Assembly (NCBI GenBank): GCA_046316615.1
Contig: JBKDAN010000049.1
Location: 38,927 to 102,926 of the forward strand
Direction of reading: 5' to 3'
Length of the DNA: 64,000 nucleotides
Origin: Phycisphaerae bacterium
GTDB taxonomy: Bacteria; Planctomycetota; Phycisphaerae; Phycisphaerales; UBA1924
Shown: positions 21,027 through 28,606 of the stretch, one piece after another
How the letters are laid out: every line of letters begins with the position of its first letter
Numbering within the stretch: position 1 is the stretch's first letter
The notes under the pieces: generated by a model
What the model saw: the letters and a program-made list of their open reading frames with translations, nothing else
What the model was told of the DNA's origin: nothing
Databases searched by the model: none
Program-made: the position numbers and the translations under genes

Positions 21027-22784
21027 TTACAGCGTCACCATTTCCATGTCGGCTTCGCGGATTTCGTTGCTCGCGGGCACGCTCACATCGGTTGCGAACT
21101 CGGGCAGACCGGCCTTGGCCATTTCGCTGCGTATGTTGGCCGCGTTGAAGAGCTGGGCGTAGGGCAGCGTGATCTGTGCGCCGCCAGCCACCTGGCCCAG
21201 CGTGCTCTGCACGACGACCGTGGTGCGTTCCTGCGTCGGCGCGGGGCTGCCCGCGAGGATCGCGAGCATGTCCAGGGCCATCTGGCCTTCGCTCTTGGCC
21301 ATCTCGATCACCGGAATGGCCTGCTCGAAGGCTTGCAGCTTGCCTTGCCAGTTCTCAAACGTGCCAGCCTTCTCGGCGAAGGTCGCGCCGGGGAGGATAA
21401 CGTCAGCAACATCGAGAATCGCGCTGCTCAGCGTGTCGACGACGACGACGAACTTGCCCGAGAGCGAGCTGCGCAGTTCGCTGGTGGCCCATTCGCTGGG
21501 GTAGTTGCCCATGACGACGACCGCGCCGATGTCGCTGCTGCCGGTGCCGTGGCCCAGCGAGCGGAGCAGGTCGGCGTATTCCATGCTGCCGCCAAATTGC
21601 TTCAGCACGCGCCGCACGCCGCGGGCGTTGGGGGCCTTTTCAGCGCGAATGTGGAAGGCCTTGGGGTGATTGGCATCGGCGCCCGCGGGGTAGACCTTGT
21701 CGGTGCCGTGCGTGGGCACGGGGCCGATGGCGAAGACAGCATTGGGAGCGATCTGCTTCACGAGCTTGGCCCACGCGTAGGCCTCTTCGCACGTGAGCAT
21801 GGGGCTGACCATCAGCGCGACTTTCTTGCCCTTCGCGCTGGCGGCGCGCAGGCCTTCGATCACTTCGTCATAGCCGCGCGTGAAGTCGCACTCGACCAGG
21901 CTGCTGAACTGCTTGCGCATCGGCGAGCGAAGGCGGTTTTCGCTGTGCACGAACTTCCAGCCGTAGCGGACTTCATCGGTGATCCACCACTTGTTCACGC
22001 CCAGGTTCTTGCGCGGCTTGACGCGGTAGACCTTGCCATCGTTGTGATGGATGGAGATGTTGTCGCCGCTGCTCGTGAGCGGGTCGATGCTCGGCGTTTC
22101 CTTGAGGAACCACACGCGCTGGGCGAAGAGGAAGTCCTTGTCGAGCAATGCGCCGACGGGGCACAGGTCCACCACGTTCGCGCTCAGTTCGTTGGCGAGG
22201 GGCACGCCGGGGAAGACATCGATCTCTTCCTTGTTGCCGCGGCCGCCCACGAAGAGTTCGGCAGACCCAGTGACCTCGCGCGTAAAACGCACGCAGCGGG
22301 TGCACATGATGCAGCGATCGCTGTACAGATAGACGTGCGGGCCCAGTTCCTTCTTGGGCTGCTTGACCTTCTGCTCCTCAAACCGGCTCACGCCGCGGCC
22401 ATACGCGTAGGAGTAGTCCTGCAAGAAGCACTCGCCGGATTGATCGCAGACGGGGCAGTCCAGCGGGTGGTTGATGAGCAGATACTCCATCACCGCCTTC
22501 TGGTTGGCCACGCTCTTGGGGCTGTCGGTGTAGACCACCATGCCATCCACGCAGGGCGTCTGGCACGTGGGGAAGAGCTTGCCCCCCATGTACGGCGCAA
22601 GCTGGCCGGTCTTGGCATCCGGCGTGTACGCCTCGCCCAGACAGATACGGCACGAGGCCACAATCGACAGGCCGTCGTGGTAGCAATACTGCGGAATCTC
22701 AACGCCATTGGCGTTGGCGACCTGAAGAATCATCTGGCCAGGCGTGAAGTCACACTTCTTGCCGTTGATGGTGATGGTGGGCAT
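21027..22784 (-). CDS. nuoG: NADH-quinone oxidoreductase subunit G-like protein (2Fe-2S / 4Fe-4S / molybdopterin-oxidoreductase fold)
   Basis: 'MPTITINGKKCDF...IPQYCYHDGLSIVASCRICLGE', 'HPLDCPVCDQSGECFLQD', 'CIMCTRCVRF' and 'DLCPVGAL'. No other nuo genes are in the window. The ORF continues in frame upstream to 23294 (see findings). Confidence 0.88.
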   Translation of the reverse strand: MPTITINGKKCDFTPGQMILQVANANGVEIPQYCYHDGLSIVASCRICLGEAYTPDAKTGQLAPYMGGKLFPTCQTPCVDGMVVYTDSPKSVANQKAVMEYLLINHPLDCPVCDQSGECFLQDYSYAYGRGVSRFEEQKVKQPKKELGPHVYLYSDRCIMCTRCVRFTREVTGSAELFVGGRGNKEEIDVFPGVPLANELSANVVDLCPVGALLDKDFLFAQRVWFLKETPSIDPLTSSGDNISIHHNDGKVYRVKPRKNLGVNKWWITDEVRYGWKFVHSENRLRSPMRKQFSSLVECDFTRGYDEVIEGLRAASAKGKKVALMVSPMLTCEEAYAWAKLVKQIAPNAVFAIGPVPTHGTDKVYPAGADANHPKAFHIRAEKAPNARGVRRVLKQFGGSMEYADLLRSLGHGTGSSDIGAVVVMGNYPSEWATSELRSSLSGKFVVVVDTLSSAILDVADVILPGATFAEKAGTFENWQGKLQAFEQAIPVIEMAKSEGQMALDMLAILAGSPAPTQERTTVVVQSTLGQVAGGAQITLPYAQLFNAANIRSEMAKAGLPEFATDVSVPASNEIREADMEMVTL

Positions 22785-23645
22785 GGGCTGGCAGGGTAGG
22801 GGGCGAGCGGGGGAGGGGACAACAACGCCCGACCCCACTCTCCCCCCGGCACGCCCTCCGGAACGCCCCGCGCCACCGCCGTCAGCGGCGAAGCGTGCAG
22901 CCGCACGGCGGTGTTCGCGACGTGGGTGGGAAGTGCCTGAGTGCGAAGTGCCGGAGTGCGGAGTGCTGGGGGGTGTTGAGTTGGGCTGGTGGTGTGGTTG
23001 GTCTTGCTCCAGTGTGCAGGGGTGGTTTGGCGTGGGTTGGTGTGCCGTGGGTTCCGGCGCGGGCGCGAATTGAGGCGTGGGCGCAGGAGGCTGCGGCGCA
23101 GGTTGTGCGGGGGCTGGGGTGAGAGCTTCGGCGAGGGCCTCGGCGATGTGGGGTTGGCGGGACCACCAGAGGACCTGGTAGTAACGCAGGTCGCGCGCGT
23201 AGGAGACTGCTTGCATGTCGCCCTTGGCGGCCTTGATGAGTTTGATGAGGTCGCGGTCGTAATCGGTGAGACGCATTTGTGTGGCCCTCCACATATACCC
23301 CCGTGTGGCGTGGTGCGCGCGCGCACGTCTGCTGAAAATCCGGATTTGCGGGGGCTAAGTGGTTGGGGGCACGGAAGTAGAAAAAGTTGGAATTTCTGGC
23401 CGCGAGGTTGGGATTTCTGCTGCGGCGCGCGCACGAAGTGTGCTGTGTGGGCAGTCGTTGTGCGCGGCGCGGTTGTGTGGTGGGTGCCGGGCTGGGTTGG
23501 GTGGATCAGGTGTGCGAACTGGTGGGGCGCGAAGTCACACGGGCAGTTGCAGAGGCGGAAGCCCTTGGCACGGAGACGAGGGCGGCGGGAGGATGAAGGT
23601 GTGCCACCTGCCCAGACGATGGATGGGGCAAGTGGTGCCAACGGC

Positions 23646-24365
23646 CTACTTCACGAGCTTCCAATAGCCACGTCGGGGGTTCTCATAGCGACCATCGTCT
23701 TTGCCGTCCCGCAGCGCATGTCGTACCAGATGTCGGTATTCTGGATGTGGTGCCGAATAGTGGGGGCAGAGAACATCGGGTTGACAATCCGACGGCCCAA
23801 ATGTTGCAAGCACGTGGTTGTATATCGCTTCGAGTGGGGTCTCGACATCGTGAGATAAGTATTTGTCGAGTTCATCACGCAACTCGGATCTGCGTTTCAA
23901 TGCGAGTGGAATGGGCGGGCAAGCGATAGTGCCACCCCATCGCGCTCGCGTCGAAATCGCTCGCCACACCTGAAGTGGCGTCGCCTCGACACCGATCAGT
24001 GACTGTGCTTGTGTGAGTATTCTGTCAAACTCCGGTGAATATGGCAGTCGATCGCGTAGCCCAGTGCTCCCGAGGACATCCGCGACTGCGGCATGGAGCG
24101 ACTCGATCTCGATCTCATTGAACGGTGACTCTATCGGGGTCGGTTTACGAACCGCATGTGGAAGCTGGCCCGATTTTCGCAACAGAAGAAGCCGCTGGAA
24201 CACCGCGCGCTTGTCACTTCGTCCGACCATCTGCATGAGATGGTCAAACTCGGGTGTATAAGGAAGGGCATCCACTGGCATGCCCACGGCCACATATGCG
24301 GTGACCAACTGAGCGTCGTCTTCGCTCTGCAACGCTGGACGAAATGGACCGCGAGAGTCGTTCAT
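23646..24365 (-). CDS. Hypothetical protein: duplicated 'LPY[TS]PEFD' module plus a C-terminal Mrr_N-like winged helix
   Basis: 239 aa. Two internal copies ('VDALPYTPEFDHLMQMV...FQRLLLLRKSGQLP' and 'RDRLPYSPEFDRILTQA...VWRAISTRARWGG'). The C-terminus 'HPEYRHLVRHALRDGKDDGRYENPRRGYWKL' resembles Mrr_N/HARE-type wHTH endings. Its start overlaps the stop of the upstream FRG gene (ATGA). G+C is lower than in the flanks. Confidence 0.6.
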   Translation of the reverse strand: MNDSRGPFRPALQSEDDAQLVTAYVAVGMPVDALPYTPEFDHLMQMVGRSDKRAVFQRLLLLRKSGQLPHAVRKPTPIESPFNEIEIESLHAAVADVLGSTGLRDRLPYSPEFDRILTQAQSLIGVEATPLQVWRAISTRARWGGTIACPPIPLALKRRSELRDELDKYLSHDVETPLEAIYNHVLATFGPSDCQPDVLCPHYSAPHPEYRHLVRHALRDGKDDGRYENPRRGYWKLVK

Positions 24366-25084
24366 GTGAACTCGAATCGACGACGGGCAACAGCGCGTGC
24401 CACGCCGTCGAGGTCAGGAAACATTGCTGCACTGTTGATGTTCATCTCGTCCAGATGCGTCATAACGCTGAGGTAGAGGCTTGATGGGAGCACAACCTTC
24501 GTAAGCGCCTCCGGCACGATGATCTCCAGATCTCGGTCATTCGACTTTAGCCGTGTGAAGACGGACCTCTGCGAGTATGCCCGTCGATTGCCCACAAACG
24601 ACGCGGAGACAATTTCAACATCATCGAGTACGTCATCGCTAATCCCTTGCGCTGAGAGCACCCAGATCGCCACGTGCTTTGGTCGCTTTTTCTTTTCGAA
24701 AAGTCGCAACTCGTCAAACGCGAAGAACGCGGCAACATAGGGTGATTGCGTCCAGTCCAACAGCCGCGTAGGGAATCCGTGGTGTCGTGCCAGCTGCTCT
24801 AATGGGTCATTGTCCATGTCGGCAAGGGTGTCGTTGATTGCACAAGCCTCGGACCTAAACACGCCCAACGCACCAATTACATTGAGTTCCCGTGCGTGTC
24901 GATCCTTGAACACACTTACACGGTCAACAGTTGCGCGAAGCTGCCATTTAGCGTCGGCATGTCCTCTGAAGTACACGCGCTGTCGAGTGGTTGCGTCCTG
25001 CGTGACGTAATCGCCGATGAACTTCAGGTACGATGACCATGACTTCATTCGCTTCAGTTGGTAGACGGCGTTCCCCATCAACAA
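24362..25084 (-). CDS. FRG domain-containing protein
   Basis: 'RVYFRGHADAKWQLRATVDR' (FRG motif) and 'LARHHGFPTRLLDWTQSPYVAAFFAF' match the two conserved blocks of the FRG domain (PF08867), recalled from memory. Confidence 0.75.
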   Translation of the reverse strand: MLMGNAVYQLKRMKSWSSYLKFIGDYVTQDATTRQRVYFRGHADAKWQLRATVDRVSVFKDRHARELNVIGALGVFRSEACAINDTLADMDNDPLEQLARHHGFPTRLLDWTQSPYVAAFFAFDELRLFEKKKRPKHVAIWVLSAQGISDDVLDDVEIVSASFVGNRRAYSQRSVFTRLKSNDRDLEIIVPEALTKVVLPSSLYLSVMTHLDEMNINSAAMFPDLDGVARAVARRRFEFT

Positions 25085-25531
25085 CAGAATAGGTTCGCAG
25101 GTTCATCGGCAGGTGGCCCAAGGATGGCGTCACGACTTCATGCATTGACCGAACTCGTTCGACAGACCACCGGCTATCCGGCTGCCCATGCTGATTCGCT
25201 GAACGCTCGGCTCAAGCCCACAAACAAGTCGCCATGACTACATCGGCCTACGGCCTCGTTCTCTCTGGCAACGGCCTTGTGCACGCCTATCACTGCCAAG
25301 GCCGAACGGGCAACGGCAAACTTAGCAGCCCGTGGCATGCACATAATGCACCAAGGAAATGCGGCCACCCGTCGTTTGGATGTTCCAGATGCCAGAGGAA
25401 GGGAAGCCCTTCCTCCGGCACCTTCATCCCTGAAGGGAGCGGGCGCGGTCCGGTTCATCGGTACCACCGTGTGTTGATGGACGTGCACCCGTTACTGACT
25501 GGAGATTTCAGCGGTCGGTCAAGAGTTCCAA

Positions 25532-26080
25532 CTACGGTTGCGTGCTTTGCTCCCGCCATGCGAGTTCTCGTTCTTGGTCGTGCGCTCCTTCGCATCGAGC
25601 CAAGCGAGCGGGCACCTGTCCCATCGTCTTCATCACCGCCTTCCAGCGAGGACCATGTGCCGATGCGGTCGGATCAAGTTGGAACGTTACCAAGTGGGCG
25701 ACTTCGTGTGCGATCAGCTCATCGATCTCGACGGGCGTTCGCGTGCTGAGCACCAACTCGGAGTAGCGAATCTCGGCCGTCTGTACTTTGGCGTAGCCCT
25801 GCGTCCGTGACATTCTCGCGGAGAACGTGACCGAAGGGCCATCACCTTGCAACTGTGGATACAACAGACGAACGACCCGCCACCATTCGGCCGTTCTCTC
25901 CACGACCCATTTCTTTCGCTGAGCGAGCGACCATCCGTTCCACTCGAGCGGAAGGGGCGACAACTGCGACAGGGCCGCCGCGGTACGTTGAGATTCGGTC
26001 GTGCGTTGCTTTTCTTGGCTTCGCTGAAGAGCAACAGCCAACAGCACCGCCAATAGCAATCCGATGCCCAGGCACCACAT
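25532..26080 (-). CDS. SprT-like zinc metalloprotease domain protein with an N-terminal TM anchor
   Basis: 'MWCLGIGLLLAVLLAVAL' (TM), then 'SARMSRTQGYA......IRYSELVL......IDELIAHEVAHLV...HGPRWKAVMKTMG' (HExxH plus the SprT-like 'HG..W' block). Confidence 0.72.
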   Translation of the reverse strand: MWCLGIGLLLAVLLAVALQRSQEKQRTTESQRTAAALSQLSPLPLEWNGWSLAQRKKWVVERTAEWWRVVRLLYPQLQGDGPSVTFSARMSRTQGYAKVQTAEIRYSELVLSTRTPVEIDELIAHEVAHLVTFQLDPTASAHGPRWKAVMKTMGQVPARLARCEGAHDQERELAWREQSTQP

Positions 26081-26299: not shown

Positions 26300-28606
26300 T
26301 TACGGGCACTGGCCGCCGGCGAGCACGTTGAAGAAGTCGATGACATCCTGGTCTTCGGGGTAGACGGTGTTGTTGTTGAAGTCGATGTCGTTGCAGGTGT
26401 TGCCGGGGCTGCAGGGGCCGCCGGCGAGGACGGTGAAGAAGTCGATGACGTCCTGGTCTTCGGGGAAGACGCCGTTGCCGTTGAAGTCGATGGGGTCACA
26501 TCGGCATGCGGGCGGCAGGCCCCAGATGCCAAAGTACCGCGATGCCTGACCGCCCGCGGTCAGGAACGCGCCTCCGACGGCGAGATCACCGTTGGGCAGT
26601 GTGGCGAGCGTGTAGACATCGCCGCCGGTGCCCGTGCCCAGTGATGTCCACGCCGAGCCGTTCCATTGCGTGAGCCCTGCGGGCATGAGGCCGCCGACAA
26701 CGACGTCGCCGGTGTTCAAGATGGCCGATGCTGTCACGAGGCTGCTGATGCCGGGCCCGTAGGCACTCCATGAGGAGCCGTTGAATCGCGCGATGTTGTA
26801 CACGGGAATGCCATCGGCGGTTGAGAAGAGGCCGCCAACCACCAAGTTGCTGAAAGGTGTGATGGCAAGCGTGTAGACGGGCCCGTCGGTGCCGGTGCCA
26901 AGGGGCGACCAGTTCGCGCCGTTCCAGCGTGCGATGTGATTCGCGCCCGCGCCGCCCGCGGTTGTGAAGTCGCCGCCAGCCACGATCTCACCATTCGCGA
27001 CCGCGGCAAGCGAGGTGACTGTCGCGTTCATGCCCGTGCCGACGCTGGACCATGTCGAACCGTTCCACCGCGCGATGCGGTTGGCCGCAACGCCGCCTGC
27101 GATGGTGAACGAACCGCCCGCGTAGATGTCAGGCGAGCCGATCTGCTTCGCGAGCGCGAAGACGGTTCCGTTGAGTCCGTCACCCAGCGTGCTCCATGTC
27201 GCGCCGTTCCAGCGAGCGATGCGATTGGTCGCGACGCCGCCTGCGGTGGTGAAGTTGCCTGCGGCGATGATGTCGCCGTTGGGCATGCTGAGCAAGGCGC
27301 TGGGCGCCGCGCCGAGGCCTGAGCCAAGCGCTGACCATGCAGAACCTGTCCAGCGTGCGATGTGATTGACCGCAACGCCGCCTGCGGTGGTGAAGTTGCC
27401 GCCGACCACGTAGTTGCTGTCGGGCAGTGCGACGATGGTGCTGACGGTGTTGTTCAATTCGGTGCTGAAGCTCGACCAGGCAGCGCCGTTCCAGCGTGCG
27501 ATGTGATTGGCAGTCACGAGTCCGGCGGTTGAGAAGAAGCCGCCCGCGACAAGATCGCGGTTGCTGTTGTTGAGCAGCGCGAGTGCGAAGATGGTGTTGT
27601 CGGTGCCTGTGCTGAGGGGCGTCCAGGTTGTGCCGTTCCAGCGAGCGATGCGGTTGGCGGGCGAACCACCTGCGGTTGTGAATCGTCCGGCAGCGATGAT
27701 GTCGCCGCTGACTGGGAGAACGACGATGGCGTTGACTGGCGCGGGTTCGCCTGTGCCCGTACCGAGTGCGACCCACGACGTGCCGTTCCATCGCGCGATG
27801 TGGTTCGCGAAGGTCGTGCCGGCGTTGGCGAAGTAGCCGCCAGCGATGATGTCCCCGTTGGGATGAAGCGCAAGTGTGGTGACTTCAGAATCCATGCCGA
27901 AGCCGATCGCCGTCCACGACGAGCCGTTCCAGCGAGCGATGCGGTTGACGAGTTCGCCGCCCGCGATTCGAAAGTAACCGCCTGCGATGACATCGTTGTT
28001 CGGTAATGCGAGCAGAGCGAGGACTGGTTGATCGGTGCCGGAACCAAGTGGCGACCATGTCGAGCCGTTCCATCGCGCGATGTGATTGGCGGCAGCACCA
28101 GCCTGTGTCGTAAACCAGCCGCCTGCGATGAGATCGCCGTTTGGCAGAAACGCGAGGCTGGTTACGCCATCGCCGAACTGGCTTGCGAGTCCACTGCCAA
28201 ACGCGGACCACGATGTGCCGTTCCAGCGAGCGATGTTCTTCGCGGGGATGCCGCCTGCAGAGTCGAAGAGACCGCCGACGATGACATCACCGTTGGGAGC
28301 GATCGTGATGGCGGTGACCTCACTGATCGCGCCAGCGACGCCTGATCCAAGCGGTGACCAGGTCGTGCCGTCCCAGCGAGCCACGCGGCTTGCCGGATTG
28401 CCGCCCGCCGAGGTGAAGTCTCCGCCCGCGATGAGCCCGCCGTCAGACGTTGGGGCGATGGCGAGGACACGGGCGTTGACACCGGGCTGGCTTGCGAGGG
28501 CGAGCCAATCCGGCTCGCACTGCGCAAACGCGGAGGGCGCTGCACAATGGAGGAGTAGGATGGTGAGAAGCCCAAGCACGCAACGATTCAAGATGGTGAG
28601 CATCAC
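26300..28606 (-). CDS. Secreted tandem-repeat protein (13 'IARWNGxxWSxLGxG' repeats, beta-propeller-like) with two C-terminal dockerin/EF-hand-like Cys modules
   Basis: Signal peptide 'LLGLLTILLLHCAAPSAFAQ'. I counted 13 repeats of about 47 aa in the translation, each '..GG.F..AGG..AN.IARWNG..WS.LG.G'. The C-terminus has two copies of 'DFN.N.V.PEDQDVIDFF.VLAGG.C'. Confidence 0.8.
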   Translation of the reverse strand: MMLTILNRCVLGLLTILLLHCAAPSAFAQCEPDWLALASQPGVNARVLAIAPTSDGGLIAGGDFTSAGGNPASRVARWDGTTWSPLGSGVAGAISEVTAITIAPNGDVIVGGLFDSAGGIPAKNIARWNGTSWSAFGSGLASQFGDGVTSLAFLPNGDLIAGGWFTTQAGAAANHIARWNGSTWSPLGSGTDQPVLALLALPNNDVIAGGYFRIAGGELVNRIARWNGSSWTAIGFGMDSEVTTLALHPNGDIIAGGYFANAGTTFANHIARWNGTSWVALGTGTGEPAPVNAIVVLPVSGDIIAAGRFTTAGGSPANRIARWNGTTWTPLSTGTDNTIFALALLNNSNRDLVAGGFFSTAGLVTANHIARWNGAAWSSFSTELNNTVSTIVALPDSNYVVGGNFTTAGGVAVNHIARWTGSAWSALGSGLGAAPSALLSMPNGDIIAAGNFTTAGGVATNRIARWNGATWSTLGDGLNGTVFALAKQIGSPDIYAGGSFTIAGGVAANRIARWNGSTWSSVGTGMNATVTSLAAVANGEIVAGGDFTTAGGAGANHIARWNGANWSPLGTGTDGPVYTLAITPFSNLVVGGLFSTADGIPVYNIARFNGSSWSAYGPGISSLVTASAILNTGDVVVGGLMPAGLTQWNGSAWTSLGTGTGGDVYTLATLPNGDLAVGGAFLTAGGQASRYFGIWGLPPACRCDPIDFNGNGVFPEDQDVIDFFTVLAGGPCSPGNTCNDIDFNNNTVYPEDQDVIDFFNVLAGGQCP

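Follow-up and report, generated by a model that had tools for sequence, protein, structure and literature searches.

The window analysed here is the whole of a 64-kb stretch of a Phycisphaerae metagenome-assembled genome, and the subject is a pair of open reading frames (ORFs) on its minus strand, located at 24362-25084 (gene A, FRG) and 23646-24365 (gene B). An identical locus is present in GCA_046318515.1. Gene A encodes an FRG-domain protein, a predicted ADP-ribosyltransferase (ART)-like effector or toxin. In the public annotation it begins at the ATG at 25078 (24362-25078, 238 amino acids [aa]), with an alternative TTG start at 25084, two codons earlier. Gene B encodes a partner of 239 aa, which consists of two copies of a repeat here termed LPYT, a linker and a predicted winged helix. 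The two genes share the stop/start overlap ATGA at 24362-24365, read directly in the sequence: the junction is ...TTCACATGAACGAC..., in which the gene A TGA occupies 24364-24362 and the gene B ATG 24365-24363. An earlier reading of the window from its letters, called the sequence-only reading below, had reported this overlap, and it is confirmed. Pairs of an FRG gene and a downstream LPYT gene recur at other loci within one clade of FRG genes, and the pair may represent a mobile cassette of the toxin-antitoxin (TA) or abortive-infection type.

Gene A belongs to the FRG family by its match to Pfam PF08867 (72.2 bits, E 6.9e-20; cut-off 25), and both sequence blocks on which the sequence-only reading had based the same assignment are present. 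The protein also matches the PADLOC model PDLC04937 of candidate PDC-S15 (8.8e-47), residues 12-233 being aligned to profile positions 16-245 of 254, together with 14 further PDC-S15 models, and it falls into PHROG 4962, a family with no assigned function. In a 27-sequence alignment of relatives (A5) gene A keeps all invariant columns, namely F37, R38, G39, H99, G101, T104, R105, L106, L107, D108, W109, S112, P113, N164, R166, Q170 and F174. The family-invariant motifs kept are the FRG triplet, the HHG.PTRLLDW..SP block and the N.R...Q..F block. A search of PDB sequences with an FRG profile found no relative of gene A. Papers from the Aravind group (PMC7685563, PMC6126934) are reported to place FRG in the ART superfamily on the basis of sequence-profile work, and to suggest for it a NADase activity and an anti-viral effector role. 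Because of this placement gene A is, as far as its sequence family tells, most likely an NAD+-consuming or ADP-ribosylating effector. The view that FRG has no established function holds in that the literature that could be searched yielded no experiment with an FRG protein; it needs amending in that FRG is already a PADLOC defence candidate and a predicted ART-superfamily NADase. The PDC set is described (Payne et al., bioRxiv 10.1101/2024.01.29.577857) as 145 untested candidates, single- and multi-gene, proposed from being embedded in BREX, DISARM or type I restriction-modification (RM) loci. PDC-S15 is not mentioned in those supplements of the PADLOC preprint that were searched.

Gene B has no match in Pfam, NCBIfam, PADLOC or PHROGs, and a word-indexed search of 5.8 billion proteins returned only the protein itself. 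An exhaustive search of 1.84 billion cluster representatives yielded 196 HMMER matches. Among the 149 matches listed, 134 cover residues ~10-145, 15 cover residues 146-238 and none covers both, so that gene B is a fusion of two otherwise separate modules. Its structure was modelled with AlphaFold2 using alignment A9, with a predicted local distance difference test (pLDDT) score of 91.5 and a predicted TM-score (pTM) of 0.68; the pLDDT was 37 when the alignment was omitted. A9 was limited to at most five rows for the C-terminal module (C-module); with more rows, MAFFT placed the second repeat of homologues under the gene B winged helix.

The model contains two similar three-helix units, at residues 15-64 and 84-138, followed by a disordered linker (residues 141-146). 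LPYT repeat 1 (24156-24323, minus strand; residues ~15-70) has helices at 15-27, 38-47 and 52-64, and LPYT repeat 2 (23946-24116, minus strand; residues ~84-140) has helices at 84-98, 101-106, 111-124 and 130-138. A conserved D-x-LPY-[TS] loop lies between helices 1 and 2 of each unit (LPYTPEFD, residues 34-41; LPYSPEFD, residues 107-114), and the first unit ends in a basic LRKxGxLPR motif. The duplication is also seen in a local self-alignment of the protein (score 52, against a shuffle mean of 26.5 with a standard deviation of 5; 3 of 500 shuffles reach 52), in a 24-nt DNA repeat (D2; copies 83% identical and 219 nt apart) and in relatives such as P0122, in which two stretches align to the same part of gene B. 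The sequence-only reading had recognized the duplication and placed it at about 30-85 and 110-165; the duplication is real, with the limits given above in place of those. A search of PDB sequences with the LPYT profile gave nothing significant. Sub-threshold Pfam matches of single members (HTH_32 0.0055, Myb_DNA-bind_6 0.0057, Sigma70_r4 0.0066) and weak Foldseek matches to the helix-turn-helix (HTH) structures of Mos1 and Rap1 (Mos1 5hoo with E 0.2 and probability 0.2, non-significant) all point one way, to HTH folds of the homeodomain-like, Myb and sigma region 4 kinds.

The C-module (23649-23927, minus strand; residues 147-239) is predicted to be a winged helix with a conserved Cys loop. 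The model, which has a pLDDT of 88-98 over residues 151-239, shows helices at 153-157, 161-169, 178-194 and 209-223, followed by a beta-hairpin at 227-237. The invariant positions of alignment A4 include C194, C200, E209, H212, R215 and W235; Cys194, Cys200 and His212 may, together with Cys149 and His203, which lie close by and are mostly conserved, make up a metal site. Many solved winged helices were matched by Foldseek with probability 0.75-0.95 and TMt 0.5-0.8 (E-values 0.6-4, none below 1e-3). The targets were the MCM C-terminal winged helix, the Rpa2 winged helix, Z-alpha/Z-beta domains and the Cdc53 WHB domain, with DpnI at 0.51, and the matched structures include 2ma3, 2heo, 1xmk, 9j8g, 9f26 and 4lb5. 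A Foldseek search of viral structures gave nothing informative, and a profile search of PDB sequences nothing significant. A Mrr_N/HARE-type winged helix had been proposed from the letters for this segment. A winged helix is also what the model suggests. Mrr_N is the only recurrent sub-threshold Pfam match of the C-module (gene B residues 169-237, E 0.27; 0.0048 in a relative), and at 11.9 bits against a cut-off of 29.5 for PF14338, with no match of full-length gene B at E<=1, the C-module appears Mrr_N-like in fold and usage and is not a member.

The C-module is rare; a profile search for homologues returned only 7 proteins. Elsewhere it is stand-alone (~92 aa) or lies ahead of NOV_C, of HNH or of a 150-aa tail with no Pfam match, the last being possibly PD-(D/E)xK-like. 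In P0179 and P0161 it is fused to, or directly follows, the FolD C-terminus. In these lineages, housekeeping genes seem to have repeatedly acquired small DNA-binding-like modules at their 3' ends. The possibility that the C-module is a diverged third LPYT repeat was rejected (hhalign probability 0.4%).

An FRG gene with an LPYT-repeat gene directly downstream on the same strand was found at 15 independent loci, including this one. Recurrent linkage of the two genes, which the sequence-only reading had put forward as a check, is borne out by these loci, beginning with the three nearest FRG homologues (P0003 in L011, P0004 in L182 and P0005 in L183), all of which have an LPYT gene directly 3'. 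The stop codon of P0003, the nearest homologue (42% identical), is overlapped by 4 nt by a 238-aa gene whose product contains both LPYT repeats (33% identity to gene B over 129 residues) and differs in its C-terminal 95 aa. P0004 and P0005 are on 1-kb contigs, and the start of an LPYT ORF is visible right after FRG in each. An FRG-seeded scan of Joint Genome Institute (JGI) metagenomes was evaluated for the best 80 loci, among which an LPYT ORF occurs only in the two best matches (L051, L052) and in L096, directly downstream each time. Searches with the LPYT profile led to four Planctomycetota genome loci with FRG directly upstream (L047, L048, L049 and L050); the search pattern taken from LPYT alignment A7 (LRKAGRLPR) biases this genome sample towards Phycisphaerae. 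When five small LPYT proteins were looked up, FRG was directly upstream of four (P0201, P0122, P0127 and P0222; not P0219), and the loci obtained from this partner side are L176, L179, L180 and L181. In L180 (1880-6363) genes for a DUF559 protein (Vsr-like endonuclease) and a DUF87 protein (HerA-like ATPase) lie 3' of the pair, a possible defence-island setting.

The junctions of the 15 pairs range from an overlap of ~20 nt (L181) to a separation of 15 nt. The ATGA overlap seen here is also found in L011, L048, L050 and L183; the junction is ATGCCTGA in L047 and TGATG/TAATG in L179 and L180, and the remaining pairs except L181 have a spacer of 0-15 nt. Small co-oriented genes with overlapping or abutting frames, as looked for in type II TA operons, are present at these loci.

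A neighbour-joining tree was calculated for 68 FRG proteins, 12 of them full-length and paired with an LPYT gene and 56 with no such partner. The 12 paired proteins are monophyletic, with a bootstrap value of 48% for the exact group and 73% when at most one misplacement is allowed. Mean identity is 36% inside the paired clade and 29% to other FRG proteins. FRG genes with no LPYT partner include those at the 77 other JGI loci, 56 of which supplied the unpaired proteins of the tree, in a Chitinophagales genome, at a locus with an AAA-like gene ahead of FRG and on the 44 IMG/VR contigs on which FRG was found. At one locus of a different FRG clade (L014, 4929-7191) a 496-aa AAA/NPHP3_N-like gene, perhaps of the STAND type, ends 2 nt before FRG, which suggests that other FRG clades have different partners of their own.

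The constant element of the partners is one LPYT repeat and not the winged helix. It is common to all intact FRG partners, and the decayed L048 keeps it in frameshifted form only. Partners of 80-105 aa with one repeat occur in L049, L050, L052 and L176, and single repeats on short or truncated contigs in L096, L181 and L182. Two repeats are present in L047, L179 and L180, two repeats plus a tail in L011, and two repeats plus a winged helix only at the locus described here. In L051 one repeat is joined to a domain resembling an extracytoplasmic function (ECF) sigma factor (Sigma70_r2, 32.6 bits with a cut-off of 24; r4 weak). A constant LPYT unit with variable, putatively DNA-binding add-ons is an antitoxin- or regulator-like architecture. 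Since the winged helix is found in this locus only, it cannot be a general sensor and is a local add-on.

The flanking genes of the pair differ among loci: SprT and NuoG genes here, an E2 acyltransferase-like ORF (identified from its translation) in L049, and other unrelated housekeeping-looking ORFs in L048 and L050. In most loci the G+C content of the pair is 5-15 points below that of its flanks. In the window the pair has a G+C content of 0.553, and windows of 1433 nt across the 64 kb average 0.626 (standard deviation 0.020), none being lower. The low-G+C islet between housekeeping genes described in the sequence-only reading is real in this respect, and the conserved housekeeping synteny that would have counted against that reading is not seen, the flanks being varied. 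A decayed copy was found in L048 (6484-7170), where the last ~70 FRG codons are left, the LPYT gene is frameshifted and the remnant directly follows a housekeeping-type (aldehyde-dehydrogenase-like) gene. A patchy, mobile distribution, an atypical composition and a decayed copy, which are likewise looked for in type II TA systems, are all observed.

At the locus itself, a gene for an SprT-like metalloprotease lies 450 nt upstream of gene A, and RuvA, NusG, SecE and L33 genes are found further upstream. NuoG, S8 peptidase and MutY-like genes lie downstream of the pair, and FtsX is also among the neighbours within 10 kb. Neither the SprT-like protein nor gene B has a PADLOC match. The upstream intergenic region (25079-25534, minus strand) is probably where transcription of the SprT unit ends and where the promoter region of the cassette lies. 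It contains a hairpin at 25387-25423 (inverted repeat I4; 17-nt arms, 88% complementary, 3-nt loop, no T-run), ~110 nt past the SprT-like stop and ~310 nt ahead of the FRG start. The SprT-like gene was considered as a member of the module and rejected; 450 nt and the hairpin lie between it and FRG, and at the other loci the inspected sequence next to the pair showed no such gene. Scans around the cassette for sigma-70 promoters, intrinsic terminators, Rfam families, tRNAs and convincing flanking repeats were negative or at chance level, and no integrase was found around the pair. An imperfect 20-nt direct repeat (16 of 20 positions matching; 23636-23655 and 25266-25285) brackets the pair and may be an insertion scar or due to chance.

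Some further features of the surroundings were recorded. Between the gene B stop and the conserved NuoG core lie ~850 nt (22800-23645) with a G+C content of 0.67 and a GC skew of up to +0.34. The nuoG start differs between public annotations (585 aa versus 754 aa), and the long ORF at 21027-23294 (minus strand) is extended at its N-terminus by a Pro/Thr/His-rich segment, in which a 15-nt tandem repeat occurs at 22923-22952. On the other side of the pair, a 768-aa protein (26300-28606, minus strand) contains ~14 'IARWNG[ST]xW' repeats and two C-terminal 'DIDFNxNxVxPEDQDVIDFFxVLAGG' repeats and has no Pfam or NCBIfam match.

The LPYT module also occurs outside FRG operons, on or beside other proteins. 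It forms the C-terminal tail of an AXE1-like alpha/beta hydrolase (~500-600 aa) in most of 29 Phycisphaerae loci (L018-L046). The flanks of this hydrolase gene are conserved in ~20 of the 29, with a PD40 beta-propeller gene 5', a 330-aa gene of unknown function 3' and an FAA hydrolase gene nearby. A free-standing two-repeat LPYT gene follows a glucan phosphorylase gene in L035, L039 and L043, and fusions of the module with DinB-like, glyoxalase and argininosuccinate lyase proteins also occur. On an IMG/VR contig (L175, 1244-4957) a 72-aa ORF with a single LPYT repeat (1716-1934) is flanked on one side by a gene for a PIN-domain toxin and on the other by an ORF of 1000 aa resembling a DNA methyltransferase, a TA/RM context in which FRG is absent. 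The gene B repeats are 38-42% identical to the hydrolase tails and 35-37% identical to two-repeat FRG partners. Wherever the host was identified, LPYT hosts are Planctomycetota.

The reading that we favour, and regard as evenly poised between right and wrong, is that the pair forms a horizontally moving two-gene cassette of the TA or abortive-infection type, in which an ART-like FRG effector is restrained or regulated by its LPYT partner. The recurrence of the pairing in 15 unrelated places makes the cassette probably a real toxin- or defence-type module. Gene B would be translated from the FRG mRNA through the ATGA overlap, which would keep both proteins in step. The LPYT repeats would bind and restrain the FRG enzyme, control the operon, or both, and the winged helix of this copy could add a contact to DNA, either an operator or foreign DNA. 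If gene B were lost or titrated, for instance on phage infection or on loss of the cassette, this putative neutralization would end and the FRG activity would be freed, and the cassette could in this way serve in phage defence.

Several observations weigh against this proposal. The Foldseek E-values are non-significant for both gene B domains, the bootstrap support of the paired clade is moderate, and the literature search on FRG proteins returned no experiments. Only a few bases separate the cassette from the stop codon of the upstream housekeeping gene in L049 and L050, too short a distance for an autoregulated promoter of the kind that type II TA operons typically have. Among the neighbours within 10 kb no defence genes were found: the pair stands alone between housekeeping genes, the embedding from which PDC candidates were proposed is absent at this locus, and there is no defence island. 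The LPYT module is moreover not specific to FRG. Tails of this kind on housekeeping enzymes are not expected of a dedicated antitoxin domain, and the distribution fits a general-purpose tri-helical module better.

A doubtful reading, and the one that stands up best among the alternatives, follows the sensor-effector model of the sequence-only reading. Gene B would here use its HTH-like repeats and its winged helix to recognize invading nucleic acid and would then activate FRG, not inhibit it, with depletion of NAD+ or modification of a target as the outcome. This reading draws on the C-module being a predicted winged helix that is fused elsewhere to NOV_C or HNH nuclease domains, on the presence of Z-alpha and the DpnI winged helix among its best structural matches, on Mrr_N as its sole sub-threshold Pfam match and on the status of FRG as a PADLOC defence candidate. 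However, the partners at other loci consist of a single 60-aa repeat or have a sigma-like domain or an unrelated tail; with the winged helix confined to this locus, general sensing of DNA would have to come from the LPYT repeat alone. The lack of a defence island here also speaks against a sensor-effector pair.

An FRG protein acting on its own in defence or as a toxin, the way PDC-S15 is defined, next to an LPYT protein that is a small transcription factor comparable to the controller (C) proteins of RM systems and does not bind FRG, is improbable. The resemblance of the LPYT repeats to tri-helical HTH units agrees with such a role, as do the viral contig on which a single LPYT ORF lies just 5' of the 1000-aa methylase ORF and beside a PIN toxin gene, and the fact that most FRG genes have no LPYT partner. 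A position 3' of FRG with translational coupling, on the other hand, is a better fit to stoichiometric pairing, two cassettes (L049, L050) have no promoter space of their own, and the clade-specific co-inheritance together with the joint decay in L048 suggests a tighter dependence.

Quite improbable is a third alternative, in which FRG is a regulatory modifying enzyme and the LPYT module its substrate or recognition element. The LPYT protein of the operon would then serve as a decoy or for immunity, and the physiological or toxic targets would be those housekeeping enzymes of Planctomycetota that bear LPYT tails. The same module is, within one phylum, both the obligatory partner of these FRG proteins and a tail on unrelated enzymes, and the gene B repeats are as close to the hydrolase tails as to the two-repeat partners. 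The argument is purely inferential, however, and reuse of a generic HTH-like module is the simpler explanation. If it were true, a lineage-wide NAD-linked regulatory or conflict system acting on a new protein module would exist in Planctomycetota. That the two genes are adjacent by chance or through a shared insertion history, and functionally unconnected, is scarcely credible: both lie in a low-G+C islet that is possibly the remnant of a larger insertion, but the 15 independent pairs share order and strand and have tight junctions, varied flanks and one FRG clade.

FRG is a widespread family that many bacteria and phage contigs carry and that PADLOC lists as a candidate; with one clade having an obligatory partner coupled to it in translation, the function of the family can be tested directly. 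Two modules for which Pfam, NCBIfam and PHROGs define no family are described, the tri-helical LPYT repeat and the rare Cys-loop winged helix shared with nuclease fusions. Should the favoured TA or defence reading be correct, the LPYT partner would enlarge the repertoire of ART toxins by a new fold of antitoxin or regulator, and the pair would be the first functional cassette of the defence or TA type for the Planctomycetota, in which such systems are little studied.

Among known systems, PDC-S15 is the closest for gene A, which matches its models over the full length; both are candidates from genomic context. The 'S' of its name is taken here to mean 'single-gene', since candidates of one gene and of several genes are both part of the PDC set. 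In contrast, the FRG gene of the window is from a clade in which an LPYT partner obligatorily follows downstream, and it stands alone between housekeeping genes. The C-module resembles Mrr_N (PF14338) and HARE-HTH in size and pattern, with a recognition helix followed by a G.W.L hairpin, and in its nuclease fusions elsewhere, whereas Mrr_N lacks the conserved Cys-x5-Cys-P-H loop and the C-module is fused here to LPYT repeats and not to a nuclease. Homeodomain-like and Myb tandem HTH proteins, such as the Mos1 N-terminal domain and Rap1, contain two consecutive three-helix units, as does gene B, but do not have the D-x-LPY-T loop and the LRKxGxLPR tail (Foldseek probability <=0.2, Pfam E >=0.005).

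The TA systems RES-Xre/MbcTA, ParST and DarTG are small, mobile two-gene operons that combine an NAD+-using toxin of the ART fold with a partner that often contains an HTH; the DarTG operon starts with its toxin gene. The cassette is alike in the form of its operon, and its FRG-first order corresponds to the toxin-first order of DarTG. It differs from these pairs in that FRG is a separate, predicted ART-like family, and in that the partner is built on the LPYT repeat, not on an Xre/DUF2384 domain or a macrodomain.

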